Assembly (NCBI GenBank): GCA_965205025.1
Contig: CBDBFU010000014.1
Location: forward strand, 160,001-224,000
Origin: Candidatus Poribacteria bacterium
GTDB taxonomy: Bacteria; Poribacteria; WGA-4E; WGA-3G
Reading direction: 5' to 3'
Length of the DNA: 64,000 nucleotides
Shown here: one piece after another, positions 4,655-63,430 of the stretch
How positions within the stretch are numbered: the first letter of the stretch is position 1
Layout: each line of letters begins with the position of its first letter
Position numbers and translations under genes: made by a program
The notes under the pieces: generated by a model
The model's database searches: none
What the model saw: only the letters and a program-made list of their open reading frames with translations
What the model was told of the DNA's origin: nothing

Positions 4655-4680
4655 TTGATAATTTAATGTGAGTTGGGTAG

Positions 4681-4801
4681 TTATACCATTTCTATTTAAA
4701 TAGTTCACATTATGAATACTCTTAGTAGTCCCCCTGATAAGGGGGATTTAGGGGGTTTCTTTAAGTTAATAATGGGCGATCATTATTTAGAAATGGTATT
4801 A
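4681..4801. mobile_element. MITE family C shell with a GTAG-CCCCC/GGGGG hairpin cargo
   Basis: TTA|TACCATTTCTA...TAGAAATGGTA|TTA; internal GTAGTCCCCCTGATAAGGGGGA. Confidence 0.8.
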
Positions 4802-8670: not shown

Positions 8671-8851
8671 ATTACATTAAAATTTCAACCATTAGAATAA
8701 TGGAGGTTATATTTCAATGAGAACATAATTAATGGATATCCACATATATCCATACGCTCTAATCATAGTTTAGAGAAATATCTATTAGGATCGAGAACAA
8801 ACAACCATTCCCAAATAATATACAATTCTACTGATTATAAGAGAATATAAA

Positions 8852-16143: not shown

Positions 16144-19100
16144 ATGAATACAAGGGAAGGTTATACCGAACTACAATCTAAGATATTAGATGCACGACGT
16201 GTATGGAAACGAAGCCTCTTCTGGACAGGAGCCGCTATCGTACTAATTGGACTTCTTGCGATCCTTGTTGGAGAATCAATTGTAGATTGGTTGATGCCAC
16301 TCCCAAGTACTGTTCGGGTTGTAATGCTTGTAGGTATTGTTGTAGCAGTAATCTACCTACTATATAGACACATCATACAACCCTTGAAAGCTTCGTTAAC
16401 GTTGCGAGACGTAGCACTAAACGTTGAGGAGAAACATCCCAATCTTGAAGATAGACTTGTAAGTGCAGTTCAATTCGGATCACGCGAATCTGATGATCCC
16501 ATTGAATCTCATATGCTACAACGTCTCCTTGAAGATACTACTAATAAAATTAAAGGCATTGATTTTAAGGCTACAATCGACCACAGCCGGACTCGAAAAT
16601 ATGTTAGTATTGCAATCTTAGTAATTGCTGCATGCGGCTTACTCACTCTCCTATTTCCTACAGAGATACAGACCAGTTTAATGAGAGTATTGGTTCCATG
16701 GGAGAAAACAAAACCCATTTTATCTACGAAAGTCGCCGTTTCACCTGGAAATGCTCGTATTCTTATAGGAAAGAGTTTACCAATTGATGTGACTGTAACT
16801 GGGAAAACTACTGATAAAGCAATCTTAACATATTATAGCAAAGATAACCCACCCACTGCTGATAGTGAAGGAAGCAAAAAAGAGATAAATATGCTGCAGA
16901 ATCCTGATGATAAACGGGGTTTTGCCTATGAACTCTTCAATATCGAAGCAGAGATGGAATACTTTGTTACTGTCAATGAGACCACATCTGAACGATACAC
17001 GATTGAGGTATTTGAAATGCCAAGGGTGGAAGATATCTCTGTCGCATACACCTATCCTGAATATACTGGTCTCACCCCGGTTATTCAACAAGGAAGCGGA
17101 GATGTACAAGCTGTCGTCGGTTCAACAGCAGAAATTCGCATCACAGCTAATAAAGCAATTCAGAAGGCTACATTCACACATCAGACTTCAAAGACTGAAC
17201 CTATTATTGATGAGATTGATGAAGATAAAGAAATCACACCAGATTCTCCTGAAATGATTATCGCAGATGGCAACATACTTACGAAGACACTACAAGTTAC
17301 CGAGGATGGAAAATACAGTGTAGAACTGCTCTGTATTGATAACTTTAATAATGAAATTCCTATTGAATACAATATAAAAGCTAATCCAGATAACCCTCCA
17401 GAAGTGGTAATCAAAGAACCCGGACGCGATGTCAAAGCTTCAATACTCGAAGAGGTTAAAATCGTTACTGAAGCAACAGATGACTTTGGGGTTGAACAAC
17501 TAAAACTGATGTACCGAATAGGGGGTGGAGAATTACAGGAACTCCTTATGGAATCTCCTGTTGAACAACTATCTGAAGATAGTAATACGGGACCCGCAAA
17601 ACACTTTAAATCTGGTACATATACATTCTATTTGGAAGAATTTGATGTTGAACCGGGTGAAATAATTACATATTATGCACAGGCTATTGACAACAATACA
17701 CTAACTGGCCCCAGTGAAGGTAAGAGCGATATTTTTTTCATAGAGATTAAACCCTTTAATCAACGACTTTCAGAAGGTGAACCATCAGAAGACGGAATGC
17801 CAAACCCATTCCTTGAATTAATTGCTTCACAGAAACAAATTATACGTGAAACATGGAATCACATTAACTCACAACCACCCACCATGACAGAAGATTACAT
17901 ATCAGCAGTCAAAAAGACTGGAACGAAGCAATCAGAATTAAAAGATAGAACTCAGAAGGTTACAGATGAATTGAGCATGCAAATGCAAGAAGTACAAATC
18001 GATCCAGAAATAATGATGAACCTTGAAGAAGCTATTGATATGATGGGTGAGGCAACAAATCATCTAAATGACACACAACCCACTACTGCAATTCCACCTG
18101 AACAAGCCGCTCTTGAACTCCTTATAAAAGTCAATCTGGCATTTCCAAAAGTGCTTAGGCAAGCAAGGAATAGCCAACCCCAACTTGCTGAGAACTTTGA
18201 ACTGGAAATGGAAGATCTGCAGAATGAACTTGAGCAAAATCAGGAAGAACTCGAACGGGAGATGCAAGAACAGACACAGGAAATGTTAGACCAAGCCAGA
18301 GAAATGCTGGCACAACAACAGAATCTAAATCAACAGAGTCAACAAATGGGGAGAGAAAGTCAACCATCTCCAAGTGATATGCAGCAGAACAGTCAACAAC
18401 AAGGCGAGTTAGCACAACAGGCACAGCAGATGTCACAACAACTCGGTGAAATGCAAGGCAATGCTCAGGGCACACAGAGTGAACGTTTATCACAAGCAGG
18501 ACAAGCGATGGAGCAAGCCGGTGAACAGATGCAACAAGCATCACAAGGCATGGAACAGCAACAACCCCAGTTGAGTGCCGCAAAAGGTGAAAAAGCTGAA
18601 GAACGGCTCGAACAAGCCATCGATCAACTTGAAAGGGCTGCCGCTGAATTCACTGATAACGCATTAGAGAGAACAGCTGAACAACTACAACAGTTGACCG
18701 CTGAACAATCTGATGTTCAACAGCAAACACAAGAATTACGAGAAAGATCTCAGGAAACTGGGATGCGTCCAGAAGATTACAGACAAGCTTCTGAACTCGC
18801 AAATGAACAACGCCAACTCCAACGAGACTTAGAATCTGTTGAAGAGAATTTGAATAATCTATCAGAGCAACTCAACCAAGAGAATCCTGAGGCTGCACAG
18901 AATGTTCAGAACGCATCAAGGCGACTCTCTGAAGAACAAACTTCAGAAGATATGGGAACAGCTCAAAGAGCATTACAATGGCGAAGTCTACAATCTGCTG
19001 AATTAAATCAACAAGAAGCTCTTGATACTCTACGAGAAGCACAAAACGATCTGCAACAGGCAAGGTCTAACATGGCACGCAATGAAGAAGAGCAACTTGA

Positions 19101-19653
19101 AGCTACACTTGACCAACTCCAAAGTTTTGAAGAACAGATGCAGGATATTCAACGCGAACGGGAAGCGATGGAAGGACAAGAACAAACAGAGGAGCAACAA
19201 CAGCGAGAACAACAACTTGCTGAACAACAACAGCAACTCGAAGAGCGTATGCAACAAGCACAACAAGCTATGCAAAACGCACAGCAAGGTCAGCAGCCCG
19301 GACAAGAGGGACAGCAACCCGGTGAACAAGGGCAGCAACCCGGGCAGCAGGGTCAACAAGGACAACAACCCGGTGAAAATGACTTGGCAAGAAGTGGACC
19401 TGAATCCAATCGTGAGATTAAGGAACTCTGGTTAGATCTTCTTGATAGTGCACAGTATCGTGCCGGAAATCGTAAGAATCCGTTCCCAAATTATGAACTC
19501 GCAATACGAGACCTGAGAAAACTTGAGACCGCTATTGAAGAACGGCTTAACCTCCTACAAGAGATGAAACAGCTAACTCAAGTTGCTAAGGAAGATGTAC
19601 CACCAAAATACAGAAGACTTGTTGACAACTACTACGAATCTTTAGCAAAGTAG
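16144..19653 (+). CDS. DUF4175-like large membrane-anchored protein with Ig-like domains and Gln-rich coiled coil, copy 1
   Basis: Three N-terminal TM segments, DRLVSAVQF, YPEYTG, EATDDFGV, Q/E-rich tail, VPPKYRRLVDNYYESL. Confidence 0.8.
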   Translation: MNTREGYTELQSKILDARRVWKRSLFWTGAAIVLIGLLAILVGESIVDWLMPLPSTVRVVMLVGIVVAVIYLLYRHIIQPLKASLTLRDVALNVEEKHPNLEDRLVSAVQFGSRESDDPIESHMLQRLLEDTTNKIKGIDFKATIDHSRTRKYVSIAILVIAACGLLTLLFPTEIQTSLMRVLVPWEKTKPILSTKVAVSPGNARILIGKSLPIDVTVTGKTTDKAILTYYSKDNPPTADSEGSKKEINMLQNPDDKRGFAYELFNIEAEMEYFVTVNETTSERYTIEVFEMPRVEDISVAYTYPEYTGLTPVIQQGSGDVQAVVGSTAEIRITANKAIQKATFTHQTSKTEPIIDEIDEDKEITPDSPEMIIADGNILTKTLQVTEDGKYSVELLCIDNFNNEIPIEYNIKANPDNPPEVVIKEPGRDVKASILEEVKIVTEATDDFGVEQLKLMYRIGGGELQELLMESPVEQLSEDSNTGPAKHFKSGTYTFYLEEFDVEPGEIITYYAQAIDNNTLTGPSEGKSDIFFIEIKPFNQRLSEGEPSEDGMPNPFLELIASQKQIIRETWNHINSQPPTMTEDYISAVKKTGTKQSELKDRTQKVTDELSMQMQEVQIDPEIMMNLEEAIDMMGEATNHLNDTQPTTAIPPEQAALELLIKVNLAFPKVLRQARNSQPQLAENFELEMEDLQNELEQNQEELEREMQEQTQEMLDQAREMLAQQQNLNQQSQQMGRESQPSPSDMQQNSQQQGELAQQAQQMSQQLGEMQGNAQGTQSERLSQAGQAMEQAGEQMQQASQGMEQQQPQLSAAKGEKAEERLEQAIDQLERAAAEFTDNALERTAEQLQQLTAEQSDVQQQTQELRERSQETGMRPEDYRQASELANEQRQLQRDLESVEENLNNLSEQLNQENPEAAQNVQNASRRLSEEQTSEDMGTAQRALQWRSLQSAELNQQEALDTLREAQNDLQQARSNMARNEEEQLEATLDQLQSFEEQMQDIQREREAMEGQEQTEEQQQREQQLAEQQQQLEERMQQAQQAMQNAQQGQQPGQEGQQPGEQGQQPGQQGQQGQQPGENDLARSGPESNREIKELWLDLLDSAQYRAGNRKNPFPNYELAIRDLRKLETAIEERLNLLQEMKQLTQVAKEDVPPKYRRLVDNYYESLAK

Positions 19654-20403: not shown

Positions 20404-23400
20404 ATGAATACAAGAGAAGGTTATACCGAACTACAATCTAAGATATTAGATGCACGACGTGTATGGAAACGAAGCCTCTTCTGGACAGGAGCCGCTATCG
20501 TAATTATCGGACTTCTTGCGATCCTTGTTGGAGAATCAATTGTAGATTGGTTGATGCCACTCCCAAGTACTGTTCGGGTTGTAATGCTTGTAGGTATTGT
20601 TGTAGCAGTAATCTACCTACTATATAGACACATCATACAACCCTTGAAAGCTTCGTTAACGTTGCGAGACGTAGCACTAAACGTTGAGGAGAAACATCCC
20701 AATCTTGAAGATAGACTTGTAAGTGCAGTTCAATTCGGATCACGCGAATCTGATGATCCCATTGAATCTCATATGCTACAACGTCTCCTTGAAGATACTA
20801 CTAATAAAATTAAAGGCATTGATTTTAAGGCTACAATTGACCACAGCCGGACTCGAAAATATGTTAGTATTGCAATCTTAGTAATTGCTGCAAGCGGCTT
20901 ACTCACTCTCCTATTTCCCACAGAGATACAGACCAGTTTAATGAGAGTATTGGTTCCATGGGAGAAAACAAAACCCATTTTATCTACGAAAGTTGACGTT
21001 TCACCTGGAAATGCTCGTATTCTTATAGGAAAAAGTTTACCAATTGATGTGACTGTAACTGGAAAAACTGCAGATAAAGCCACACTAACATATTATAGCA
21101 AAGATAACCCACCAACGGTTGATAGTGATGGAAGCAAAAAAGAAATAAATATGCTACAGAATCCTGATGATAAACGGGGTTTTGCCTATGAACTCTTCAA
21201 TATCGAAGCAGAGATGGAATACTTTGTTACTGTCAATGAGACCACATCTGAACGATACACGATTGAGGTATTCGAAATGCCGAGGGTGGAAGATATCTCT
21301 GTCGCATACACCTATCCTGAATATACTGAACTCAGTCCAGTTGTTCAACAAGGAAGTGGAGATGTACAAGCTGTCGTCGGTTCAACAGCAGAAATACGTA
21401 TCACAGCTAATAAAGCAATTCAGAAGGCTAAATTCACACATCAAACTTCAAATACTGAACCTATCATTGATAGGATTAATGAAGAAACAGAAGTCACACC
21501 AGATTCTCCTGCAATGACTATCGCAGACAGCAACATACTGACAAAGACACTACAAGTTACCGAGGATGGAAAATACAGTGTAGAACTGCTCTGTATTGAT
21601 AACTTTAATAATGAAATTCCTATTGAATATAATATAAAAGCAAATCCAGATAACCCTCCAGAAGTGGTAATCAAAGAACCCGGACGCGATGTCAAAGCTT
21701 CAATACTCGAAGAGGTTAAAATCGTCGCAGAAGCTACAGATGACTTTGGGGTTGAACAGTTAAAACTGATGTACCGTACCGGTGCTGGGGAATTACAGGA
21801 ACTCCTTATGGAATCTCCTGTCGAACAACTATCTGAAGATAGTAATACTGGACCTGCAAAACACCTAAAATTTGGTTCATATACCTTCTATTTGGAAGAA
21901 TTTGATGTAGAACCAGGTGAAATATTATCATATTATGCACAGGCTATTGACAACAATATACTAACTGGACCCAGTGAAGGAAAAAGCGATATTTATTTCA
22001 TAGAGATTAAACCCTTTAATCAACGACTTTCTGAGGATGAACCATCAGAAGGTTCTTGTCCAAACCCATTTCTTGAGTTAATTGCTTCACAGAAACAAAT
22101 TATACGTGAAACATGGAAACATATTAACTCACAACCACCCACCATAACAGAAGATTACATATCTGCAGTCAAAAAGACTGGAACGAAGCAATCAGAATTA
22201 AAAGATAAAACTCAGAAGGTTACAGATGGATTGAGCATGCAAATGCAAGAAGTACAAATCGATCCAGAAATCATGATGAATCTTGAAGAAGCTATTGATA
22301 TGATGGGTGAGGCAACAAATCATCTAAATGACACACAACCCACTACTGCAATTCCACCTGAACAAGCCGCTCTTGAACTCCTTAATAAAGTCAATCTGGC
22401 ATTTCCAAAAGTGCTTAGGCAAGCAAGGAATAGCCAACCCCAACTTGCTGAGAACTTTGAACTGGAAATGGAAGATCTGCAGAATGAACTTGAGCAAGAT
22501 CAGGAAGAACTCGAACGGGAGATGCAAGAACAGACACAGGAAATGTTAGACCAAGCCAGAGAAATGCTGGCACAACAACAGAATCTAAATCAACAGAGTC
22601 AACAAATGGGGAGAGAAAGTCAACCATCTCCAAGTGATATGCAGCAGAACAGTCAACAACAAGGAGAATTAGCACAACAAGCACAGCAGATGTCCCAACA
22701 ACTCGCTGAAATGCAAGGCAATGCTCAGGACACACAGAGCGAACGTTTATCACAAGCAGGACAAGCGATGGGGCAAGCCGGTGAACAAATGCAACAAGCA
22801 TCACAAGGAATGGAACAGCAACAACCCCAATTGAGTGCCGCAAAAGGTGAAAAAGCTGAAGAACGACTTGAACAAGCCATCGATCAACTTGAAAGGGCTG
22901 CCGCTGAATTCACTGATAACGCATTAGAGAGAACAGCTGAACAACTACAACAGTTGACCGCTGAACAATCTGATGTTCAACAGCAAACACAAGAATTACG
23001 AGAAAGATCTCAGGAAACTGGGATGCGTCCAGAAGATTACAGACAGGCTTCTGAACTCGCAAATGAACAACGCCAACTCCAACGAGACTTAGAATCTGTT
23101 GAAGAGAATTTGAATAATCTATCAGAGCAACTCAACCAAGAGAATCCTGAGGCTGCACAGAATGTTCAGGACGCATCAAGGCGACTCTCTGAAGAACAAA
23201 CTTCAGAAGATATGGGGACGGCTCAAAGAGCATTACAATGGCGAAGTCTACAATCTGCTGAGTTAAATCAACAAGAAGCTCTTGATACACTACGAGAAGC
23301 ACAAAATGATCTGCAACAGGCAAGATCTAACATGGCACGCAATGAAGAAGAACAACTTGAAGCTACGCTTGACCAGCTCCAAAGTTTTGAAGAACAGATG

Positions 23401-23904
23401 CAGGATATTCAACGCGAACGGGAAGCGATGGAAGGACAAGAACAAACAGAGGAGCAACAACAGCGAGAACAACAACTTGCTGAACAACAACAGCAACTCG
23501 AAGAGCGTATGCAACAAGCACAACAAGCCATGCAAAATGCACAGCAAGGTCAACAACCCGGTGAACAACTCGGACAGCAGGGAGAGCAACCCGCACAGCA
23601 GGGACAACGGGGACAAGAACCCGCAGAAAATGACTTAGCAAGAAGTGGTCCAGAATCCAATCGTGAGATCAAGGAACTCTGGTTAGATCTTATTGACAGT
23701 ATGCAGTATCGTGCCGGAAATCGTAAGAATCCGTTCCCAAATTATGAACTCGCAATACGAGATCTGAGAAAACTTGAGACCGCTATTGAAGAACGGCTTA
23801 ACCTCCTACAAGAGATGAAACAACTAACTCAAGTTGCTAAGGAAGATGTACCACCAAAATACCGAAGACTTGTTGACAACTACTACGAATCTTTAGCAAA
23901 GTAG
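20404..23904 (+). CDS. DUF4175-like large membrane-anchored protein, copy 2
   Basis: Near-identical to 16144..19653; ORF intact. Confidence 0.8.
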   Translation: MNTREGYTELQSKILDARRVWKRSLFWTGAAIVIIGLLAILVGESIVDWLMPLPSTVRVVMLVGIVVAVIYLLYRHIIQPLKASLTLRDVALNVEEKHPNLEDRLVSAVQFGSRESDDPIESHMLQRLLEDTTNKIKGIDFKATIDHSRTRKYVSIAILVIAASGLLTLLFPTEIQTSLMRVLVPWEKTKPILSTKVDVSPGNARILIGKSLPIDVTVTGKTADKATLTYYSKDNPPTVDSDGSKKEINMLQNPDDKRGFAYELFNIEAEMEYFVTVNETTSERYTIEVFEMPRVEDISVAYTYPEYTELSPVVQQGSGDVQAVVGSTAEIRITANKAIQKAKFTHQTSNTEPIIDRINEETEVTPDSPAMTIADSNILTKTLQVTEDGKYSVELLCIDNFNNEIPIEYNIKANPDNPPEVVIKEPGRDVKASILEEVKIVAEATDDFGVEQLKLMYRTGAGELQELLMESPVEQLSEDSNTGPAKHLKFGSYTFYLEEFDVEPGEILSYYAQAIDNNILTGPSEGKSDIYFIEIKPFNQRLSEDEPSEGSCPNPFLELIASQKQIIRETWKHINSQPPTITEDYISAVKKTGTKQSELKDKTQKVTDGLSMQMQEVQIDPEIMMNLEEAIDMMGEATNHLNDTQPTTAIPPEQAALELLNKVNLAFPKVLRQARNSQPQLAENFELEMEDLQNELEQDQEELEREMQEQTQEMLDQAREMLAQQQNLNQQSQQMGRESQPSPSDMQQNSQQQGELAQQAQQMSQQLAEMQGNAQDTQSERLSQAGQAMGQAGEQMQQASQGMEQQQPQLSAAKGEKAEERLEQAIDQLERAAAEFTDNALERTAEQLQQLTAEQSDVQQQTQELRERSQETGMRPEDYRQASELANEQRQLQRDLESVEENLNNLSEQLNQENPEAAQNVQDASRRLSEEQTSEDMGTAQRALQWRSLQSAELNQQEALDTLREAQNDLQQARSNMARNEEEQLEATLDQLQSFEEQMQDIQREREAMEGQEQTEEQQQREQQLAEQQQQLEERMQQAQQAMQNAQQGQQPGEQLGQQGEQPAQQGQRGQEPAENDLARSGPESNREIKELWLDLIDSMQYRAGNRKNPFPNYELAIRDLRKLETAIEERLNLLQEMKQLTQVAKEDVPPKYRRLVDNYYESLAK

Positions 23905-24000
23905 ATAGCAGCATTCTACTTAAGAAAAATTTGGGACAATATGGGAAAACCCAGTTGTCCCTTTCTTATACCAATTCTTATAATTATAGTCTCTTTAATG

Positions 24001-24119
24001 TAATACCATTTCTAATTGAAAATGTCTCTTTTTTGTACCACAAACTTTCAGTTTGTGACCTGAAAAATGACTACCATAATAACCACCTAATGAGACAATA
24101 ATTTATAGAAATGGTATTA
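24001..24119. mobile_element. MITE family C
   Basis: TACCATTTCTA...TAGAAATGGTA ends; core GTACCACAAACTTTCAGTTTGTG; near-identical to 38366 and 39475. Confidence 0.9.
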
Positions 24120-26165: not shown

Positions 26166-26218
26166 ATTCACTGATTTGATGAATGAACTGACACAGAAAT
26201 TTGAATGGAAATTTGAAG

Positions 26219-27445
26219 ATGGATTTATCAAGAATTGTTCCTCGCATTGAATCCTTACGGGTCAAGAACTATCGTGCATTACAAGATGTCAAAATACGAG
26301 GTATTACCCCGGTAACAGCATTTTTAGGCTCAAACGGAAGTGGAAAATCAACACTTTTTGATGTCTTTGCATTTCTTGCAGAATGCTTCACAGAGGGTTT
26401 ACGTCGCGCTTGGGATAAACGTGGACGTTTCAATGAATTAAGAACACGGGGCAATGATGGACCTATAGAGTTTGAATTGAAGTACCGAGAAAAGCCTAAT
26501 ACTCCTATTATTACCTATAAATTAACCATTAATGAAACAAAAAAGGGACCAATCGTTGAAAATGAATCATTACAATGGAGACGTAAACGCTATGGAAAAC
26601 CATTCCGCTTCCTGGATTTTGGTAAAGGTAGAGGAAATGTAATTACAGGTGAAATGCCAGACGAGACAGATACACGAATTGAGGAACAGTTGGATGATCC
26701 ATCGATGCTGGCAGTCAGCACTCTTGGACAATTAGCCAGACACCCACGCGTTAGTGCTCTTCGAAGATTTATTACTGGATGGCATCTCTCCTATCTTTCT
26801 GCCGACGCTACACGGGGGATACCAGAAGCTGGACCCCAGGAAAGATTATCTGAATCAGGAAATAATCTACCAAATGTTATACAGTATTTGAAGGAACAAC
26901 ATAAAGACAGGTTGGATGAAATACTCTCAATTTTATCCAGAAGAGTTCCAAGATTAGAAAAGGTGGACGCTGAAATTATGTTGGACGGACGTCTTTTGTT
27001 ACAAATTAAAGATGCTCCATTTGATCAGCCAATATTAGCTAAATTCGTATCTGATGGAACACTGAAGATGCTATCCTATCTAACCTTATTATATGATCCT
27101 GAACCTCCGTTGCTAATTGGTATTGAAGAACCAGAGAATTATCTACATCCACGTTTGTTGAATGGTTTGGCAGAGGAATGTCATAAAGTGTCGGCATTAT
27201 CTCAAGTAATGATTACAACCCATTCACCACAATTTATTAATGAATTTCGTGCTCAAGAGGTATGGGTTCTATATAGGGATGAAAAAGGTTTTACTGTATG
27301 TAAACGCACTTCAGATATGCAGGGGGTCAATGAGTTTATCGCGACAGGGGCTAAGTTAGGACAGTTATGGATGGAGGGCTATTTTGAATTTGGTGATCCA
27401 TTAACTAATTCTGACAATCTAATAGGAAATAGACATGCATCTTGA
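26219..27445 (+). CDS. AAA_21/ABC-type ATPase
   Basis: [13 protein letters not shown] signature, IEEPEN.LHP and TTHSP motifs. Confidence 0.9.
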
Positions 27446-29901: not shown

Positions 29902-29988
29902 AGAAATTGACTAACTATCAGCATTTCCAATTAAAGACTGTGTTTCCATGTCAAAAAACCTATAGGTAACAACTTAGCATAAAATTAG

Positions 29989-30110
29989 TAATACCATTTC
30001 TGATAATTAATGTCTCTCTTATGTGGTGTAGCATAAACTTCCAGTTTGTGCGGTATTCAAGACAAGTTTGACAACTGTTCATGGGATAAACATTTATAGA
30101 AATGGTATAA
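29989..30110. mobile_element. MITE family C variant
   Basis: TAA|TACCATTTCT...AGAAATGGTA|TAA; core GTAGCATAAACTTCCAGTTTGTGC. Confidence 0.85.
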
Positions 30111-30150
30111 GTATCCTTGGAAATTGAAGTGAATTAAATAGAGGTGTATT

Positions 30151-33989: not shown

Positions 33990-34354
33990 GGGTGTGTAAA
34001 GTTTTTGTCCCTAAACATTACGCTGCTATTGTACCTGGATACCAATAATTATCCCAAGTATCATTCTTTAGCATACATCTCTAACAACTTTGTCCGATGG
34101 ATTGAGCACCTTCAAATACACGCTGCTCCGCTTCCATCAAATCACAAAAACCAAGCTCAAGGTTTCCTACTAAATCGTATATTTCTTCAACCAGTTCTTT
34201 CGCAGCTTCTGCATTTTTCTTTGATTTTACAACTTTCTAATGATAAACTAAACATCAAAATGAAATTAAGAAAATACTAAGATAGGATACCATTTTTATA
34301 TAGTTTTACAATCCCAAACTTAAACTCTTCAAGTGACAAAAACTTTACATACCC
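33990..34354 (-). mobile_element. Internally deleted ISKra4/IS256-like element
   Basis: 20-bp TIR GGGTRTGTAAAGTTTTTGTC; minus strand retains a transposase-like start (MQKLRKEL..EAEQRVFE..SIG from 34214) fused to an end (NDTWDNYW..AA*). Confidence 0.7.
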
Positions 34355-37767: not shown

Positions 37768-38168
37768 GGGTGTGTAAACTTTTTTTCACTTTACAACAAT
37801 GTTTCTTATAAAAACGAATCGTTCGTACAGATAGAATTCTTCTTCTGTAGGAGAGAACTCCGACTCCCGACTCTTGCGTAATCCGTGATTCAGAAATAAC
37901 ACCTCTTTGTACCACAAACTTTATGAGGATTAAGTAAATATTTCGGTAATCCAGTCCATAAACTTATCGTAGGGGCAGGGTTAACCCGTCCGTATATTAC
38001 CGATTTAATAAATTAATCTTCATTTAGTTTGTGATCTTACTCCTTCCCCTCTCCAAACACTCTTATCCGCGTAATCTGTGTAATCTGTGATGCAGACAAC
38101 TCAAACATACATAAAAATAAACTAATCTCACAAAATTGACACCAAAGGTGACAATTATTTACACACCC
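37768..38168. mobile_element. Non-coding element with IS256/ISKra4-like ends, filled with REP-like repeats and a nested MITE
   Basis: GGGTGTGTAAA...TTTACACACCC ends, the same terminal type as 33990-34354. Confidence 0.7.
37924..38022. mobile_element. MITE family D, copy 1, inserted in a REP loop
   Basis: TGAGGATTAA..TTCGGTAAT/ATTACCGA..TTAATCTTCA; TTTA duplicated; removal restores CACAAAC-TTTA-GTTTGTG. Confidence 0.85.
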
Positions 38169-38211: not shown

Positions 38212-38627
38212 AGGAAACCAATCAAAGAAAAAAAATGAAGAAAACACCAATCTCTTACAACTAATATACATATATCACAAAAACAGAAAAACATATTAAT
38301 AATATTTGTAAAAATGAAAATAACGGTGTATAATATTATATCGTTCAATATTTATAAACTAAAACTAATACCATTTCAAATTGAAAATGTCTCTTTTTTG
38401 TACCACAAACTTTCAGTTTGTGACTTGAAAAATGACTAACATAATAACCGCCTAATGAGACAATAATTTATAGAAATGGTATAACACTGTAAATAAGGAT
38501 ATAAGGCGGAAAGATAACAACACAAACTAACAACCAATAACTAAAAACTATGAACTATAAGCTAATGACTCTCTATAAAGACGATCCTAATAACGAAGTT
38601 TCATATACGTCAAAAAAACATACCTTT
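38212..38627. repeat. Repeat family B, copy 2, interrupted by a family C MITE
   Basis: Colinear blocks shared with 1727-1919. Confidence 0.7.
38366..38484. mobile_element. MITE family C
   Basis: TAA|TACCATTTC...GAAATGGTA|TAA; near-identical to 24001-24119. Confidence 0.9.
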
Positions 38628-39348: not shown

Positions 39349-39474
39349 TTGCCATTCACAATAGCCATACATCTAATATAATTATGAGATTGACAGATTA
39401 CCTCCCAATAAATGATTGACAATGGCTAATATTAGATGTAATAATTACGATACATTGTGGATGTGATGTTTATA

Positions 39475-39593
39475 TTATACGATTTCTAATTGAAAATGTC
39501 TCTTTTTTGTACCACAAACTTTCAGTTTGTGACCTGAAAAATGACTACCATAATAACCGTCTAATGAGACAATAATTTATAGAAATAGTATTA
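39475..39593. mobile_element. MITE family C
   Basis: TTA|TACGATTTCTA...TAGAAATAGTA|TTA; near-identical interior to 24001-24119. Confidence 0.9.
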
Positions 39594-45436: not shown

Positions 45437-47407
45437 TTATCTATCAGCAATTCCCATATCTTCTAAATCCCAGAGTAGAAGTGTACCGTTATTACTGCCA
45501 CTGACAAGAATTGATCCATCAGGTGAAAAGGTGAATTTAGTCGGTCCTGCACTTTCCTCTGTATTGAATTGATGATATAATGATCTTGTCTCCATATCAT
45601 AAATTCTGATTACCCCACCGTGTAAGCCAGTGACCATACTCTTACCATCAGGTGAGATTTCTAATCCCTCTGATGTTCCTCTTGCATCAAGAAAGTCAGC
45701 AATGTTTTCTTTAGTATCTGTATCCCACAATTTTATTTCACCATTCCAAAGAGCAGTCAATAGTTTATTATCTGGTGTAAAGGTTACTTCTTCAATTCCA
45801 TTTTCTGCCTGAATAGGTAATGTTGTTTTTGTAAAATCATCAAGATTCCACAAATTCACTGTACCATCTTCACTTCCACTTGCAAACCACTTCCCATCAG
45901 GTGAGAATGTAACAGATCTTACATCTTCAGTATGACCATCAAGTGTTTTATATAACTTTCGATTAGGTACATCCCACAAGAAAACTCTCCCACGCCAATG
46001 ACCACTCCCCAGTAGTTTTTCGTCTGGAGAGAATGCTAACGTTAAAACAAACTCACTATATTTTCCAAGTGGTGGATAGAATTTCTGAGTCTCAGCATCC
46101 CATAACCGTACCTCACCCCAACACCCAGAAGCCACTGTCTTTCCGTCTTTTGAAAATATCATGTCAAAAGCATACCAGGGTGGTTTTGTCTGTATGAATT
46201 TTTCTGAGATACCTGTTTCATCCATATTTGTCTGTGTTATAATACCATCTGAACCACCACTTAGAAGGGTTGCACCGTTATTAATAAAACGTACATCTTT
46301 GACAGATCCAGTATGTCCATGAATTGTTAAAAGTTCTTTCCCAGTATTTACCTCCCACACCTTCGCTGTTCCATCATCACTACCACTTACCAGTTTTTCT
46401 CCATCAGCAGAAAAGTGTAGTGCCTTAACTGGAAGAGTGTGTCCTATAAAGGTACGTTTTATTAACCTATTAGTGTTTTTCCTTTTGTTATTACCTGTAA
46501 GTGAACGTAACATCTTGGCTAATGAAGGTGTATTATCTCTCTCTATATGTGGTGAAGGTTCAAGATGCCATAGATTAATTTTTCCTCCTGTATCACCACT
46601 TGCGAATGTATTTCCATCAGGAGAAAATACGATTTTCTCTACATTGCGTGTATGACCATCGTATGTAAGTAATTCCTCTCCAGATTTAGTATCCCAGCTT
46701 TTAAGAGTTGTAGAACCACCAACAAGTATTTTACTATCTGGTGAAATAGCTAAAGCCCACCCCTCGTAAGGAATTGTATGGAGTTTTTCTTTGGTGAATG
46801 GATCCCATAAGAAAAGCTCGTTTCTTGCAGCACTTGCGATGTAATTTGAATCAGATGATAATGCTAAACCGTTAAACAACCCTTCTTGTTCACCAGTAAA
46901 CGATAACACTTCTCGACTTGATTCAATCTCCCACATATGGTATTCAACATTACGATTCCAACTTAAGCAAGTAAGTAGTCTACCATCTGGGGAAAATACC
47001 AAGGATTTTACACTCCCAATTCTTTCTTTCATTACCGTAAGGAGTTCACCTTTATTGACATCCCATAATTCTACTGCACCTCCTATAACCCAGTTTCCTA
47101 TAGCGAGTGTGTTACCATCTGGGGCAAATGCAATACAATTTACATTCCGAACACCTCGTGGTTTTACCTTAAGGAGAGATATTTCAGTTCCCGTATGCGC
47201 GTCATAAATCCAAACACCTATATCCGAAGCCACTGCCAACCGTGAACCGTCCGGAGACAATTTCATATCGTTGATTCCTCCTTTACCGATACGCATTATC
47301 GCTCCATCAGGTAAGTGCCATTGGTTATAATCTTGGACTTGACTGGTTGAATGGAATACAATGAATTGCATTAGTATGCAGGTTAGAATAAGAAAAGTCT
47401 TCTTCAT
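45437..47407 (-). CDS. Secreted WD40-repeat protein
   Basis: Signal peptide, QWHLPDGA..RIGKG leader, many GH..V..FSPDG..ASGS.DG.V.LW repeats. Confidence 0.92.
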   Translation of the reverse strand: MKKTFLILTCILMQFIVFHSTSQVQDYNQWHLPDGAIMRIGKGGINDMKLSPDGSRLAVASDIGVWIYDAHTGTEISLLKVKPRGVRNVNCIAFAPDGNTLAIGNWVIGGAVELWDVNKGELLTVMKERIGSVKSLVFSPDGRLLTCLSWNRNVEYHMWEIESSREVLSFTGEQEGLFNGLALSSDSNYIASAARNELFLWDPFTKEKLHTIPYEGWALAISPDSKILVGGSTTLKSWDTKSGEELLTYDGHTRNVEKIVFSPDGNTFASGDTGGKINLWHLEPSPHIERDNTPSLAKMLRSLTGNNKRKNTNRLIKRTFIGHTLPVKALHFSADGEKLVSGSDDGTAKVWEVNTGKELLTIHGHTGSVKDVRFINNGATLLSGGSDGIITQTNMDETGISEKFIQTKPPWYAFDMIFSKDGKTVASGCWGEVRLWDAETQKFYPPLGKYSEFVLTLAFSPDEKLLGSGHWRGRVFLWDVPNRKLYKTLDGHTEDVRSVTFSPDGKWFASGSEDGTVNLWNLDDFTKTTLPIQAENGIEEVTFTPDNKLLTALWNGEIKLWDTDTKENIADFLDARGTSEGLEISPDGKSMVTGLHGGVIRIYDMETRSLYHQFNTEESAGPTKFTFSPDGSILVSGSNNGTLLLWDLEDMGIADR

Positions 47408-47601
47408 GATATGTTCCTCATATTTATTCTATTTGATTCGGTTTGGAAACCGAACCTATCGTTGTTTTTATTAAATTATAAGATGTGACATTCAATTCTT
47501 AGTATTTGATTACAATACAGTATAACATTATTCAGTAATATTGATACAGTTTTCAACGTGACCTATAAATACTGGTTCATCGGTGTGTATAGAATTATAT
47601 A

Positions 47602-48192
47602 CCATAGGCGTCAATTTAGGAGAAAAAATGTTGTATCCCAGACCGGTAGGTGCGGTTTCCCAACCGCACTATTGGGCCTCAATTTTAGACTATGACTTTA
47701 TTGGTTTTGAGTCCCGGGGAATGCCTAAATGGCATTCATACCGTTGATTTGGTAGGGACGGAATGTCTATAGAAAAAGGATCAATTAACAAAATGAGTCC
47801 CGTAGGGACGGAATGTCTATAGAAGTGGTTATCACCAATATCCCAAGCCCCGGTGAATGCCATAAGGCATTCATACCCGGTGAACGCCAAAAGGCGTTCA
47901 TACCGTTGATTCCTTGATTCGCGGGGCGAAAGGTGTGTAGAAAACGTATAAACACAAAACACTAAGCCCCGGTGAATGACTAATGAAGATTAACTAAATA
48001 TTTCGGTAATTCTAATTTTCCCAAACCCGGTAGGTGCGGTTTCCTAACCGCACTGGATCTTTCTCCAAAATTACCGAATTTAAAAATTAATCTTCATATG
48101 TCATTCATACCCGGTGAACGCCAAAAGGCGTTCATACCGTTGATTCCTTGATTCGCGGGGCGAAAGGTGTATCCCTAAATTGACGCCTATGG
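47602..48192. mobile_element. 591-bp non-coding element (family F) with perfect 19-bp TIRs and an 18-bp TSD
   Basis: CCATAGGCGTCAATTTAGG/CCTAAATTGACGCCTATGG; TGTGTATAGAATTATATA at 47584-47601 and 48193-48210. Confidence 0.92.
47984..48096. mobile_element. MITE family D, copy 2, nested in the F element
   Basis: TGAAGATTAA..TTCGGTAAT/ATTACCGAA..TTAATCTTCA; cargo GTAGGTGCGGTTTCCTAACCGCAC. Confidence 0.85.
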
Positions 48193-48415
48193 TGTGTATA
48201 GAATTATATACCTACCCAATGATAGATCTTTATATGTAAGACACCGGTGTGCTATAAAGGGTACATACAACAGAAAAATCCAACGCATCTATGCAAGCTT
48301 CTCGGCAAGTCAAATAATTAGTTGTGTCAAAATTAATTGATTATGGTATAGGTTTTTAGTATAATATCAAACAGGAAGATAACTCCAAAATTTTCATTAT
48401 TTTAAGGAAAAGAAT

Positions 48416-49186
48416 ATGCAACGTAAAAGCTCCCGATCAAAATACTGTATGGGTGAACTGATTGAACGTGAAGATTTTTCTGAAGATTTAGCCGCCTTCA
48501 AATTCAAGACTGACCAAAAACTCCCGTTTATTCCTGGACAATATGCTACCATCGGTTTTGAAGTGAATGAAAAGATTGTTCAACGACCCTATTCAATTGT
48601 ATCATCACCTCACGAAGATTTTATGGAGGTGTTTGTAGAATTGGTACCGGAAGGTGCTACAACTCCACTGTTTTGGGAATTGAAACTTGGCGATAGTGTT
48701 TTTATCAGGGATCGTCTTGTTGGGAAGTTTGTTATGGATGTGGATAGTGGTATGACCCGTCATGTTATGGCAGGAACAGTTACAGGGGCTGCTCCTTATA
48801 TCAGTATTGCTCGGACGTTGAAGATTGAACAGGAACAGGGTAAATCGAACCCGCATGAGATTCTTACTATTGTTGGGGCAAGTCGTTCATGGGAACTTGG
48901 GTATTATATGGATGAGCTGAATGAACTTGCTGCTCAGGAGGAATGGTTTAGTTTTGTGCCTACTGTGAGCCGTCCCTGGGAAGATGAAAAGTGGGAAGGT
49001 GAGAGTGGACGTGCTGAAGATGTTATCCGTAAATATGGGGACGAGATGGGGTATGATCATACGAATTCAGTTGTTTATGCGTGTGGACATCCACAGATGA
49101 TTGAGAATTCCAAGGCTATTTGGTCACGTGCACGTTTCCCTGAGGAACGGATTAAAGAGGAGAAGTTTTTTGTAATTAAGGAGTAG
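48416..49186 (+). CDS. fpr: Ferredoxin--NADP(+) reductase (bacterial type)
   Basis: FIPGQY, RPYSIVS, TVTGAAPY, TVSRP, YACGHPQM and terminal EKF motifs. Confidence 0.85.
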   Translation: MQRKSSRSKYCMGELIEREDFSEDLAAFKFKTDQKLPFIPGQYATIGFEVNEKIVQRPYSIVSSPHEDFMEVFVELVPEGATTPLFWELKLGDSVFIRDRLVGKFVMDVDSGMTRHVMAGTVTGAAPYISIARTLKIEQEQGKSNPHEILTIVGASRSWELGYYMDELNELAAQEEWFSFVPTVSRPWEDEKWEGESGRAEDVIRKYGDEMGYDHTNSVVYACGHPQMIENSKAIWSRARFPEERIKEEKFFVIKE

Positions 49187-61327: not shown

Positions 61328-63430
61328 TTATTCTTCAATTACTTCATCATCTATTGCCGGTTCAATTACTTCGTCATCTATTATTGGTTCAATGGGTTGA
61401 ACTTCGACTTCAATTTCTGTGTCTCCAGTCACAATAAACCTATTTACGATGAATGGCAGACCAGTAATTGGTACTGGTAATGGTTCCTCAATTTCTTCCT
61501 GTAGTTCACCATCGTCAGGTAGTTCACCGTCTTCAGGTAGTTCACTGTCATCTGGCATTTCACCATCGTCAGGTAGTTCACCGTCTTCAGGTAGTTCACT
61601 GTCATCTGGCATTTCACCGTCCTCTGGGAGTTCACCATTATCAGGTAGTTCACTGTCTTCACCTATATCAGGTTCTGGTAGGTTCTCGAACAATGTGGTA
61701 AAGAATTGTTCAAAGAAATTTTCAAAAAGTTCTTCGATTTCTGGATCGAGCATTTCAGGTTCATCCTCTAATGCAGCAAGCGTTACAAGGACTAATCCTT
61801 TATCATACTGACCATCTTTGAGTTGATATATCAGTTGATCTAAACTCTCTGGAGATGGAGCATTCTGTATACCAAAAGGATTGAAACCGAAAGTTGTCGC
61901 AGAGGTGACGGCTAAACGAGCTGGACCAGGTATGAAGTTTTCAGGTATTTGGAGTTTAACTTCTCTATACATCTTCCGATTTCTACCAGCAGCACTCCAA
62001 TGTGGTAACATCTCAACGACAAAAGTTGCTTCTTCACCCTGTTTAATTTCACCAACAACATGAATATCAGTTATCTCTGTGTGTAGAATATATGGTATAT
62101 CTATGAGAGATATCTTGACTTCATCAATGGTTGCTCTTTCAGCACCATTATAGAGAATATTGGATAATGGTTGAATTATTGATTTCATATTTTCCAATAC
62201 AGCTTTAAACGGGTCTGGTGCGATTGTTCTGAATGATTCTGTATAGACAGTATCAGTTTCTTTAAAACTAATTGCGACATTGGCTTCAATTGTACCCGGA
62301 CTAACTTCCATTCGAATTGAATCCAGTGTTGTAGCAACTACAACTGGAATTGCCCATTCTTGACCATATGCTACCTCATGGTTTTTCTGAATAGGTACTT
62401 GACTGTTGACGGGTTTATAATACACAGTAACAGGAATCATATCAGGTAATTTACCAAGTTCACCTACAATACCAGGCCTAAGGTCTTTGGTAATTGTACC
62501 TATTGGATTCCCATAAGCAGAAGCAGATTTATATGCAATTTCTGTATTCGGAACTATTCCATCAACTACAGCTCTGTATACAGGGAGTGACACCTTGCCA
62601 GCACGAAACATGTCATGACCAAAGGCAACAAAATTCCCATCATAAACCTGAGTGACAGTTCCAAAACCTATACTGTTTACAACATCACCGGTTGCGATTG
62701 CAACACCAATCATGTCACCCGCAGAAAGTTGTAATGTCGCATTTGCTGGTGGGGCAACAGGAGCACCGCCTATCCTTGAGAAAAATTGCACAGAATCAAA
62801 ATGTGTACCGCTAAGATGATCCGAAAGTTGTTGTAACCTGTTGTTGTCAACACCAGAGATTGTAACTGGAGTCTTCACTTTGGTAAAGGTCGCTTTTATT
62901 CCACCGCCTGGAGCAGCAGGTGGATTCAAAATATCACCAAAGGTTGTATGGTTAATGGTCGCTTCCATAGCTTCAATTGGTGTAACCAAAAATCTATATG
63001 GAGCTTTAGCCCAGGCGTCCCCATAAGCAAGAGCACCGAACACTCTTCCTGGAGGTCCAACTGGACTACCCGACATACCTTGTGCAACTCCTCCCATTGC
63101 TGTCACTGCTTCGTCGGTAAGAACACATTCATAGAGTGGAAATCCAAATCCAGAAGGTTGAATTCTACGAAATTCAGCTTCAAAAGCTACTTTACTCGTT
63201 CCTTCAATGGCAGTAATTACTTCTATACGGGTCTTAGTTGCAAGTTTACTGACTTCAGCTTCATACATCGGTTCAAGCACTACTTCTCCAACCAAAGGTG
63301 CTCCATTAAATACATTTGATACATCAGCAATAGTTGGATTTTGAACTTCAGGTTGTTCTTCATCCTGAGAACAACCGAATTGTATTATAATTGCTAATGT
63401 AATAAAAGCTATAACAAAATATCGTTTCAT
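61328..63430 (-). CDS. SpoIVB/peptidase S55-domain lipoprotein with acidic hexapeptide repeats
   Basis: QFGC lipobox, GVAQGMSGSPV, GTVT..AFGH; E(L/M)P(D/E)D(G/S) repeats. Confidence 0.85.
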   Translation of the reverse strand: MKRYFVIAFITLAIIIQFGCSQDEEQPEVQNPTIADVSNVFNGAPLVGEVVLEPMYEAEVSKLATKTRIEVITAIEGTSKVAFEAEFRRIQPSGFGFPLYECVLTDEAVTAMGGVAQGMSGSPVGPPGRVFGALAYGDAWAKAPYRFLVTPIEAMEATINHTTFGDILNPPAAPGGGIKATFTKVKTPVTISGVDNNRLQQLSDHLSGTHFDSVQFFSRIGGAPVAPPANATLQLSAGDMIGVAIATGDVVNSIGFGTVTQVYDGNFVAFGHDMFRAGKVSLPVYRAVVDGIVPNTEIAYKSASAYGNPIGTITKDLRPGIVGELGKLPDMIPVTVYYKPVNSQVPIQKNHEVAYGQEWAIPVVVATTLDSIRMEVSPGTIEANVAISFKETDTVYTESFRTIAPDPFKAVLENMKSIIQPLSNILYNGAERATIDEVKISLIDIPYILHTEITDIHVVGEIKQGEEATFVVEMLPHWSAAGRNRKMYREVKLQIPENFIPGPARLAVTSATTFGFNPFGIQNAPSPESLDQLIYQLKDGQYDKGLVLVTLAALEDEPEMLDPEIEELFENFFEQFFTTLFENLPEPDIGEDSELPDNGELPEDGEMPDDSELPEDGELPDDGEMPDDSELPEDGELPDDGELQEEIEEPLPVPITGLPFIVNRFIVTGDTEIEVEVQPIEPIIDDEVIEPAIDDEVIEE

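Follow-up and report, generated by a model that had tools for sequence, protein, structure and literature searches.

A probable composite non-coding transposon that duplicates a whole 22-nucleotide target, with nested hairpin insertions, in Candidatus Poribacteria

Between two genes of a Candidatus Poribacteria genome lies a 609-base non-coding stretch packed with hairpins. Our goal was to understand what this DNA is, and how its many layers came to lie inside one another. The stretch comprises an element, here called F (47604-48190), and one copy of a 22-mer that is found on either side of it. In our reading, to which we give a probability of about 0.8, F is a composite non-coding transposon (MITE) belonging to a Candidatus Poribacteria family defined by the end motif ATAGGCGTCAATTTAGG. 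A search of the literature collection available to us found no paper linking Poribacteria with miniature inverted-repeat elements, and none combining MITE, REP, target-site duplication and stem-loop.

Ends and duplicated target of element F

The window, by which we mean the whole 64,000-nucleotide stretch of DNA analysed, contains ATAGGCGTCAATTTAGG exactly twice, once on each strand. The features that define F are as follows.

47582..47603, + strand: left copy of the target-site duplication, GGTGTGTATAGAATTATATACC, 22 nt, exact, abutting the left end motif
47604..47620, + strand: left TIR, end motif ATAGGCGTCAATTTAGG, 17 nt, or 19 nt including CC at 47602-47603
48174..48190, - strand: right TIR, end motif ATAGGCGTCAATTTAGG on the minus strand, or 19 nt (48174-48192) with GG
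48191..48212, + strand: right copy of the target-site duplication, GGTGTGTATAGAATTATATACC, exact, abutting the right end motif

The two TIRs are identical at 17/17 nucleotides, and at 19/19 with CC/GG. Hence, the perfect 19-bp TIRs described in a first-pass annotation of this DNA are present with no mismatches. Note that shuffled sequence gave a mean of only 0.16 matches to the end motif when up to three mismatches were allowed. The same annotation described an 18-bp direct repeat flanking F, or 22 bp with GG/CC. This too is exact; the 18-nt core (47584-47601 and 48193-48210) is contained in GGTGTGTATAGAATTATATACC, which has two copies in the window, no further match at up to three mismatches, and none in 100 shuffles. 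Note that the CC/GG can be assigned to neither target nor element; hence, a TIR of 19 nt with a duplication of 17-18 nt would fit as well. The target had also been called an imperfect palindrome. This was borne out, with 6 of the outer 9 positions pairing and an arm-spacer-arm symmetry, GGTGTGTA-TAGAAT-TATATACC, of 8-nt arms around a 6-nt spacer, though the 22-mer folds weakly as single-stranded DNA (-0.8 kcal/mol, z -0.38, with 58 of 200 shuffles equal or better).

Open reading frames overlapping F encode 90 amino acids at most. The window contains no Rfam families or tRNAs, so F is not a known RNA. No match to F was found by blastn in a plasmid collection. A cyanobacterial origin, which WD40 genes and small repeats had seemed to suggest, was rejected, since HIP1 (GCGATCGC) is absent from the 64-kb window and Poribacteria MAGs alone match the repeats. 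In a promoter scan, the 22-mer was not itself called; the pair TTGACG (within the right end motif) and AATTAT (within the right duplicate) scored 9/12. The scan called 6 sites in total, compared to 4.3 +/- 2.5 in shuffles, and we therefore make no promoter claim.

A family with a 20-22 nt target duplication

With the 17-mer plus R as query, 50 genome stretches were collected (identified below by L numbers). Forty are from Poribacteria MAGs, two are from relatives (L041 and L043), and eight, from other phyla, look like chance matches. Pairing end motifs with up to three mismatches, plus strand then minus strand, gave 34 pairs, 154-587 nt apart. These delimit non-coding elements, with several copies per genome. 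We considered an element validated if abutting direct repeats were at least 18 nt long with no more than two mismatches. Twenty-one elements, F included, have such repeats and account for 42 of 100 motif ends. The other 58 ends are solo, nested, decayed, or cut by the end of the locus. The duplications are 22 nt (n=10), 21 nt (n=9), or 20 nt (n=1) long, and one was read as 24 nt via a boundary offset. While the duplicated repeats differ from copy to copy, position 1 is G in 21/21, position 2 is G in 20/21, and the last base is C in 20/21. Since the repeats vary, yet start with GG and end with CC, long target duplication is a family trait. Hence, both the non-autonomous element F and its long duplication are genuine, as had been proposed from this one locus. 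TIRs, a copy-specific target duplication, and a small multi-copy body without a transposase gene are all properties of a MITE.

The same rule is apparent from the motif instances themselves. The pattern GG-N17/18-CC precedes 67 of 91 instances, compared to 79 of 20000 random positions and 1 of 8 chance matches. An unbiased scan, for direct repeats of at least 14 nt abutting an inverted repeat, recovered only the end-motif family (13/13). In one genome, an element of about 191 nt occupies four sites, each with a different duplicated target. L019 and L024 have both flanks and the element in common, and so represent one event, copied inside a larger repeat. Clean repeats are missing from 13 of the 34 nearest-neighbour pairs, and in some of these (L009, L026, and L036) the flanking hairpins are oppositely oriented. 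Note that, with so many targets drawn from a single REP family, left and right flanks taken from different elements still satisfy the repeat test in 122 of 2000 draws.

The commonest target is a GTAG-headed REP-like hairpin, with examples including CCGGTAGGTGCGG.. and TGTAGGGCGGGG.. sequences. The REP1 type is duplicated in L002, L021, L022, L023, L028, L038, L045, and L049. Where the REP head (CCGGTAG / CTACCGG) is present on one side only (L002 and L045), this indicates that only 21-22 nt were duplicated. Tandem double insertions also occur, with three copies of one hairpin alternating with two elements (L002; also L028 and L038). At least 8 of the outer 9 positions pair in 11/21 targets, and 4 or more in 19/21; the two targets scoring 2 paired positions are boundary offsets. 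Weakly palindromic targets include GGGTTTCGCTACCGCTCTACCC and GGGGCGGGGCACAGGGACCCC, with 6 and 4 of the outer 9 pairing. As the first-pass annotation anticipated, other copies have long duplications, and hairpin targets are usual, with some targets barely palindromic. Its suggestion that F itself targets loops does not hold. The target is a 20-22 bp segment with dyad-symmetric ends (GGK...MCC), which is duplicated whole and need not fold well; it is not a loop. Excision footprints, defined as tandem 19-24-nt GG..CC duplicates 0-5 nt apart, were absent from 457 kb, which gives no sign of cut-and-paste loss and weighs little either way.

The earlier annotation also proposed a search for a transposase-bearing partner with the same TIR. 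No autonomous partner with the end motif was found in the window or the 50 loci. Genes beside solo ends are ordinary. We listed the ORFs beside 15 solo or unpaired ends and scanned 12 of them, with 6 more from L034, L042, and L043, against Pfam; these 18 gave ordinary genes or no family, and no partner. A search with phmmer, using E. coli IS30 InsI as a single distant query against 2076 ORFs (window plus 50 loci, 457 kb), gave nothing at E <= 10. We scanned 40 window ORFs of at least 150 aa (34 with NCBIfam, 6 with Pfam), and none of these gave a RAYT. Two candidates were set aside. An IS701-family transposase (7606-8664), the only one in the window, is bounded by different ends, CAGGACTTACGC, that bear no relation to the end motif. 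The end motif also resembles an IS30 end (TCAATT at about position 8), but too weakly for any conclusion.

Hairpins nested in F, filled and empty

The hairpins and units inside F, and one related copy outside it, are listed below.

47643..47669, + strand: REP1, a GTAG-headed REP-like hairpin, CCGGTAGGTGCGGTTTCCCAACCGCAC (-9.3 kcal/mol, z -3.84)
47670..47688, + strand: internal, degenerate version of the end motif, TATTGGGCCTCAATTTTAG, immediately 3' of REP1 (GGCCTCAATTT compared to GGCGTCAATTT, 91%)
47710..47774, + strand: REP2, an AGTCCC..GTAGGGAC hairpin split by a 36-nt GAATGCC unit (47716-47751), as judged against the intact copy at 47796-47824
47796..47824, + strand: intact REP2 unit, AGTCCCGTAGGGACGGAATGTCTATAGAA, holding AGTCCCGTAGGGAC at 47796, from folding and repeat comparison
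47846..47945, + strand: REP4 copy 1, a GCCCC/GGGGC hairpin with a 68-nt loop insert at 47854-47921 (fold z -6.43)
47965..48173, + strand: REP4 copy 2, with a 183-nt loop insert at 47973-48155 that is the double unit of copy 1, itself split by MITE D
47983..48097, + strand: MITE D, ATGAAGATTAA...TTAATCTTCAT, in the loop of a GAATGAC/GTCATTC unit (-23 kcal/mol, z -6.07)
48027..48054, + strand: REP1 hairpin CCGGTAGGTGCGGTTTCCCAACCGCAC inside MITE D, the second CCGGTAGGTGCGGTTTCCCAACCGCAC site within F
37923..38023, + strand: second copy of MITE D, not part of F, within a CACAAACT/AGTTTGTG hairpin loop

The inner hairpins had been recognised in the first-pass annotation, and our comparison agrees, with an intact AGTCCCGTAGGGAC at 47796 and split hairpins at 47710, 47846, and 47965. 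The split REP2 folds as a hairpin within a hairpin (-12.1 kcal/mol, z -3.96), and the REP2 unit is also found within end-motif elements of other genomes. The REP4 copy 1 insert combines a pair of GAATGCC-type hairpins with a TTGATTC tail that occurs twice. The relative L041 carries a 189-nt version of F in which both GCCCC/GGGGC hairpins are unsplit. These are the empty sites. Compared to the unsplit L041 unit, the blocks flanking the insert are identical at 48/51 and 13/15 positions for REP4 copy 1, and at 37/38 and 48/51 for copy 2. Note that the two inserts may not be independent events, since they have a 76-nt stretch in common that is 97% identical.

The nested units also occur independently. 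MITE D, which does split a nested unit at its loop, as proposed, has 12 complete copies. Flanks that are inverted complements over at least 5 bp surround 11/12 of these, and TA lies no more than 4 nt from both ends in 10/12, with offsets of 0-2 nt; L048 has none. The marks of an IS630/Tc1-mariner-type MITE would be a TA target and a TA duplication. MITE D may thus target TA, with a preference for sites that are symmetric. The 36-nt GAATGCC unit is present at six other loci (L007, L015, L019, L035, L037, and L047). Judged by eye, 10 of 11 well-defined insertions of this unit lie between hairpin arms. The proposed hierarchy of elements that recognise hairpin loops is thus supported in part, by the positions of MITE D and the GAATGCC unit, and fails for F itself.

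The degenerate motif at 47670-47688 may bear on ancestry. By eye, it shares with the degenerate end of L041 both the AAAATTGA variant and the distance from CCAAAACCAA. An alignment of L041 to F put the L041 end on 47595-47617, not on 47670-47688. The inner motif probably represents what was once the left end of an ancestor resembling L041.

Origin of the array and comparison with known systems

How might such an array be built? The sequences show the family, its duplication rule, the nesting, and hairpins both filled and empty; the mechanism, the enzymes, and the sequence of events given here are inferred. We suggest a staggered-cut mechanism. A transposase, encoded elsewhere, would bind both end motifs and capture a 20-22 bp target with dyad-symmetric ends (5'-GGK...MCC-3'). 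The element ends would then be joined, one to each strand, at points separated by 20-22 bp, or about two turns of the helix, and gap repair would duplicate the whole target segment. Since GTAG-headed REP-like hairpins are the commonest fits to GGK...MCC, it is hairpins that end up duplicated on both sides of an element. Hairpins carried within elements could become new targets in turn, giving nested and tandem arrays. For F, an older L041-like element probably sat beside a REP1 hairpin, inside another family member, and would then have moved along with that member's intact left end. The two small elements would have colonised the hairpins of F. MITE D would enter palindromes at their dyad centre, with TA as the probable site, and the 36-nt hairpin-plus-tail unit would enter hairpin loops 3' to a run of Cs, without duplication.

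Could the array instead be a BIME-like mosaic, in which REP hairpins and linkers are multiplied by a RAYT and shuffled by recombination? The end motif would then be a linker and the 22-mers REP copies. The hairpins do begin with GTAG, the head by which REPs are recognised, and clusters of REPs are termed BIMEs (PMC3733652). Furthermore, the end motif is nearly always directly 3' of a hairpin, and tandem hairpin-motif-spacer-hairpin-motif arrays occur in L001, L017, and L032. However, the flanking repeats are direct, exact, and copy-specific, and some are non-palindromic (L006, L027, and L033). The AT-rich 22-mer of the window is not a REP and is found nowhere else in the window, one element occupies different targets in one genome, and no RAYT turned up in the 40 scanned window ORFs. 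HUH enzymes are not known to make a target duplication. We consider this mosaic unlikely. Site-specific recombination, at a dif/lox-like core with the 22-mers as attL and attR, is less likely again. Xer-type recombination leaves integrated elements between arm-spacer-arm sites, and the window 22-mer has such symmetry; xrs cassettes are described in the abstract of the IS1202-family paper. Against this, a site borne by the element should be constant, whereas one element here has different 21-22-mers at each locus, each pair identical. F also has TIRs, like a transposon. Finally, short repeats crowd this region and the 64 kb hold only one copy of F, as might result from a single local rearrangement, or from misassembly of repeat-rich DNA. 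We regard this as highly improbable. Twenty other elements, found in several independent assemblies, have this architecture, and their repeats are bounded with single-base precision. Some of the loci belong to records with complete chromosome in the title (5.2-6.1 Mb; complete Poribacteria chromosomes include OZ250160.1, OZ244616.1, and OX638351.1) and, for this reason, the family is not an assembly artefact.

We return to a composite transposon as the best explanation of F. A bolder version of this reading, which we hold to be speculative and rather doubtful, is that the end-motif elements are moved by an undescribed integrase that measures about two helical turns between GGK/MCC half-sites. 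The 36-nt unit would rank with the smallest known mobile DNAs, spreading via single-stranded hairpin loops, 3' of a C run and without duplication; together, the elements would form a self-feeding ecosystem. The logic would be that of Cas1-Cas2 duplicating a CRISPR repeat, or of casposases with their 14-15 bp duplications, unlike that of ordinary insertion sequences. If true, every insertion creates hairpin targets, shaping the intergenic DNA of an uncultivated sponge-symbiont phylum.

Target duplications of at least 20 bp are rare, and report the geometry of the complex between enzyme and target. The tight 20-22 bp duplication, with GGK..MCC ends, yields a testable prediction about a putative transposase in Candidatus Poribacteria, which are uncultivated sponge symbionts. 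The exact duplication rule is also a simple means to date and order insertions. Layered intergenic DNA can thus be built without coding sequence, from hairpin repeats together with the transposons duplicating them and the mini-elements splitting them. Such arrays confound assembly and annotation of Poribacteria genomes.

The first-pass annotation compared F to IS1634/IS1549. IS1630 of Mycoplasma fermentans, a member of the IS30 family, is the more apt comparison, having inverted-repeat targets and 19-26 bp duplications. A title cited in PMC3317919 says that IS1630 targets and duplicates inverted repeats; its duplications are given as 19-26 bp (PMC2853133) and, for strain M64, as 16, 23, 25, and 26 bp (PMC3317919). 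TIRs, long duplications, and inverted-repeat targets are common to both, with duplications of 20-22 nt here. There are also differences. IS1630 is autonomous, about 1.2-1.4 kb long, with 27-bp ends. The F family is non-coding, spans 154-587 nt, has a 17-19-nt end, and follows a much tighter duplication rule (20-22 nt, GGK..MCC); no IS30-type transposase was found in the sequence searched. The IS1202 family, as its abstract describes it, resembles the F family in having a characteristic fixed duplication length for each subgroup, of 27-28, 15-17, or 5-6 bp. Only the 5-bp subgroup is described there with a defined target site, an xrs. The 20-22 nt duplication matches none of the subgroups given, and IS1202 ends are said to begin with TGT (or TaT/TgT), whereas F-family ends begin ATAGG / CCATAGG.

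Smaller hairpin-associated elements offer further parallels. REP-targeting insertion sequences, namely IS1397/ISKpn1, ISPpu9/10, and IS621, show loop-specific insertion. In this they resemble MITE D and the GAATGCC unit, which sit inside hairpins. However, these insertion sequences are full-length members of the IS3 or IS110 families, while the units here are non-coding and 36-560 nt. Moreover, the largest unit here duplicates the hairpin whole and does not split it. That REPs serve as targets of insertion sequences is noted in PMC3733652. The inner hairpins, and many of the targets, resemble REP, REPIN, and BIME sequences in being GTAG-headed, multi-copy, intergenic, and clustered. F as a whole is not GTAG-headed, and end-motif elements have TIRs and a target duplication, both of which REPINs lack. 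Elhai and colleagues reportedly described, in 2008, small dispersed repeats (SDRs) of heterocyst-forming cyanobacteria, such as the SDR1-8 sequence families of Nostocales, that nest in each other and in hairpin contexts without target duplication, with a size said to be 21-27 nt. PMC3116915 lists SDR as one of several families of short repeats. SDRs resemble the GAATGCC unit in being very small (tens of nt), dispersed, and apparently mobile, but they belong to a different phylum, probably have different sequences, and, at 21-27 nt, would be shorter than the 36 nt found here.

Element F and its setting in the window

Element F, which is non-coding, occupies positions 47604-48190, between two divergent genes. 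Features of the region are listed here.

Features of F and its flanks (window coordinates)
45437-47407, minus strand: WD40-repeat gene, on one side of F's intergenic region
47582-47603: left copy of the target, GGTGTGTATAGAATTATATACC
47604-47620, plus strand: end motif, ATAGGCGTCAATTTAGG
47643 and 48027: GTAG-headed hairpins (REP1), of the form CCGGTAGGTGCGGTTTCC(C/T)AACCGCAC
47710: second AGTCCCGTAGGGAC-type copy, split by a 36-nt unit
47796: intact AGTCCCGTAGGGAC unit
47846 and 47965: two GCCCC/GGGGC hairpin units, each split by a doubled 36-nt unit
47983-48097: MITE D, a small element within one of the doubled-unit inserts
48174-48190, minus strand: end motif
48191-48212: right copy of the target
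48416-49186, plus strand: FAD/NAD-binding oxidoreductase gene, on the other side

The two end motifs are the only exact copies in the 64 kb. The AT-rich 22-mer abutting the outer side of each is repeated exactly, in direct orientation, and has no further copies in the window at up to 3 mismatches. No Rfam families or tRNAs were found in the window. The first-pass annotation described inverted ends, a direct repeat, inner hairpins and nested units; all are confirmed. Within the window, REP1, the favourite target of F's relatives elsewhere, is confined to F. The end motif also holds an outward-facing TTGACG, 8 nt from the tip (48180-48207, and the mirror position at the left end). At the right end of F, this and AATTAT, in the duplicated target, form a weak promoter-like site (9/12). 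Outward -35 boxes are described as typical of junction-promoter-forming insertion sequences.

Other repeats occur in the window. A complete-looking IS701-family insertion sequence (7581-8672), not related to the end-motif family, has inverted ends CAGGACTTACGC and, by eye, ATTACA-like flanks; its transposase ORF (7606-8664) scores 364.6 bits against NF049921. A small inverted-repeat family with GTAATACCATTTCT... ends and a GTACCACAAACTTTCAGTTTGTG hairpin has copies at 23995-24119, 38360-38484, 39469-39593, 4680-4801 and 29988-30116, and is also present in Poribacteria loci (5698-5830 of L001, one of the genome stretches matched by the end motif). The 23-nt inverted repeat GGGTGTGTAAAGTTTTTGTC.. 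(33990-34012 and 34332-34354, with 319 nt between arms) is probably a further MITE family. Its motif recurs in locus L007, at about 6395-6415, where an end-motif element lies close downstream. Nowhere in the window is there a cyanobacterial HIP1 octamer (GCGATCGC). Among the genes, tandem paralogues at 16144-19653 and 20404-23904 (1169 and 1166 aa, 4260 nt apart) share long stretches at 97% identity and have glutamine-rich repetitive tails; the first has no NCBIfam match. Nor has a 700-aa ORF (61328-63430), within which an 18-nt periodic repeat occurs nine times (61476-61691). Defence-like genes, at 26201-27445 and 2194-3333, encode an AAA ATPase, weakly matching the MADS3 antiphage model (110.6 bits; cutoff 420), and an adenine DNA methyltransferase-like protein.

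Target duplication in the end-motif family

Scanning genomes for the 17-mer plus R gave 50 matching stretches. Forty are from Candidatus or uncultured Poribacteria, several in records titled as chromosomes (5.2-6.1 Mb), and two (L041 and L043) are from bacteria with the same repeats as the Poribacteria loci. The remaining eight, from unrelated phyla, look like chance matches. The window is absent from the 50, and sequence matches between it and the loci are limited to repeats. On the strength of these shared repeats, the window is taken to derive from Poribacteria or a close relative. G+C content is 38% in the window and 39-46% in the Poribacteria-type loci. Together, these contain 100 end motifs at up to 3 mismatches (51 plus, 49 minus), most of which pair plus-then-minus over 154-587 nt.

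To be accepted, a direct repeat had to abut both element ends, measure 18 nt or more and contain no more than 2 mismatches. Twenty-one elements, including F, carry such repeats: ten are 22 nt long, nine 21 nt and a single one 20 nt, while another reads 24 via a boundary offset. The elements in L019 and L024, identical down to their flanks, amount to a single event. The duplicated sequences vary between copies. REP1 hairpins account for many of them, in one orientation or the other (GGTGCGGTTACAAACCGCACC, GGTGCAGTTAGGAAACCGCACC), and GGGTTTCGCTACCGCTCTACCC, GGGGCGGGGCACAGGGACCCC, GGGGTTAGGTTACCTAACCCC and GGGTAGAGCGCATCAAAACCC also serve. In a single genome, one element of ~191 nt occupies four places, with a different duplicated target at each. 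Where REP is the target, its head (CCGGTAG or CTACCGG) is on one side only (L002, L045); hence, just 21-22 nt are duplicated. In L002, L028 and L038 a middle hairpin copy is common to two elements, as a second hit on a duplicated target would give. These data support a true target duplication, common to the family.

The ends of the repeats are also constrained. All 21 start with G, 20 start with GG and 20 end with C. Furthermore, GG-N17/18-CC precedes 67 of 91 motif instances, compared with 79 of 20000 random positions and one of eight chance hits from other phyla. Also in support of the duplication, a motif-independent scan for inverted repeats bordered without a gap by direct repeats of 14 nt or more recovered only end-motif elements (13/13), in loci pre-chosen for the motif. 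When flanks were swapped between elements the repeat test was still passed in 122 of 2000 draws, because many targets are one REP family. Note that 58 of 100 motif ends are outside validated elements, and 13 of 34 nearest-neighbour pairs are without a clean repeat. Among these pairs are nested or tandem mispairings (some), pairs with hairpins in opposite orientation (some), one cut at the locus end and one with MITE D in the left duplicate.

The first-pass annotation also proposed a hierarchy of non-autonomous elements recognizing hairpin loops. The hierarchy, with hairpins as habitat, holds; the details of target choice by F, and of what happens to the target, do not. The target is not a loop, a good hairpin is not required, and the whole 20-22 bp segment is duplicated. 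Among the 21 segments, the outer nine positions pair at 8 or 9 positions in 11 and at 4-7 in eight, including that of the window; two score 2, owing to boundary offsets. The window 22-mer folds at only -0.8 kcal/mol, within the range of shuffles. What stays constant is a stretch of 20-22 bp whose ends are dyad-symmetric, starting GGK and ending MCC. Since the CC/GG is invariant, it may belong either to the target or to the element. In the latter case the inverted repeat would grow to 19 nt, leaving a duplication of 17-18 nt, as first annotated.

Nested units and the probable assembly of F

The 36-nt unit comprises GGGGAATGCC, a loop, GGCATTCATACC and then GTTGATTTG. Beyond the window, copies are found in L007, L015, L019, L035, L037 and L047. 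Of 11 well-defined inserts judged by eye, ten are enclosed by the arms of recognisable hairpins, of four or five kinds; the other, in L007, is adjacent to a hairpin instead. On the left, the junction is usually preceded by a C run, and no duplication was seen on inspection by eye. Units are nested in units in L015, L037 and L047, and doubled hairpins are accompanied by doubled tails. Since the two doubled inserts of F share 76 nt at 97%, they may stem from one event, then copied. Their first GAATGCC-type hairpin nevertheless differs by a compensatory pair: GAATGCC/GGCATTC at 47852-47877 and GAATGAC/GTCATTC at 47971-48112. Both variants are found in other genomes (L035, L037), and the conserved stem points either to selection for base pairing or to distinct source copies.

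Across the window and loci, MITE D is present in 12 complete copies. In eleven of them the flanks are inverted complements over 5-13 bp, and these copies sit at the centres of palindromes, of at least six kinds. In ten of 12, TA is at most 4 nt from both ends, with shifting offsets. A TA-targeting transposase preferring symmetric sites would explain this; true loop targeting would do so too.

A 189-nt relative of F occupies an unrelated site in L041. Shared blocks are identical at 37/38, 48/51, 13/15 and 38/42 positions. The window-only stretches, 47854-47921 (68 nt) and 47973-48155 (183 nt), both fall in GCCCC/GGGGC loops that are closed in L041. Inside F, a degenerate end motif (47670-47688) is directly 3' of a REP1 hairpin. 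Judged by eye, it matches the degenerate right end in L041 both in carrying the AAAATTGA variant and in its distance from CCAAAACCAA; the aligner instead placed that L041 end on the outer end of F. L001, L017, L026 and L032 likewise show an end motif followed by a short spacer, REP1 and another end motif. This recurrence leads us to a two-step reading: an older L041-like element would first have landed at a REP1 hairpin, close to the left end of a second family member, and later have moved along with that member's intact left end, giving F.

Proposed mechanism and comparison with known systems

In the simplest account, a transposase encoded elsewhere would bind the end motifs and link them to the target at its GG and CC ends, one on each strand with 20-22 bp in between; repair would then duplicate the segment. 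Site-specific recombination is very unlikely, because the flanks of one element vary between sites yet match within each. Similarly, a BIME-like mosaic is at odds with exact, direct, copy-specific repeats and with the window's target, which is not a REP. A search for excision footprints found none, which is compatible with copy-and-paste movement while proving little. Concerning a partner, none was found in the window or the loci: solo end motifs adjoin ordinary genes, and an E. coli IS30 transposase query found no match among 2076 ORFs. The sole transposase in the window, of IS701 type, has its own ends, unlike the end motif.

The very small nested units of F resemble the small dispersed repeats of Nostoc. 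In the literature searched, nothing like F is described in the Poribacteria phylum. REPs have been described as GTAG-headed and as targets used by insertion sequences (PMC3733652). The IS1202 family also makes long duplications, of 27-28, 15-17 or 5-6 bp, with ends beginning TGT; end-motif elements match neither these lengths nor these ends. In F, a non-coding element, the duplication is tight (20-22 bp) and obeys a simple end rule. The nearest known behaviour is that of IS1630, an IS30-type element of Mycoplasma fermentans, for which a paper title cited in PMC3317919 states that inverted repeats are targeted and duplicated, and whose duplications are 19-26 bp (PMC2853133), or 16-26 bp in strain M64 (PMC3317919).
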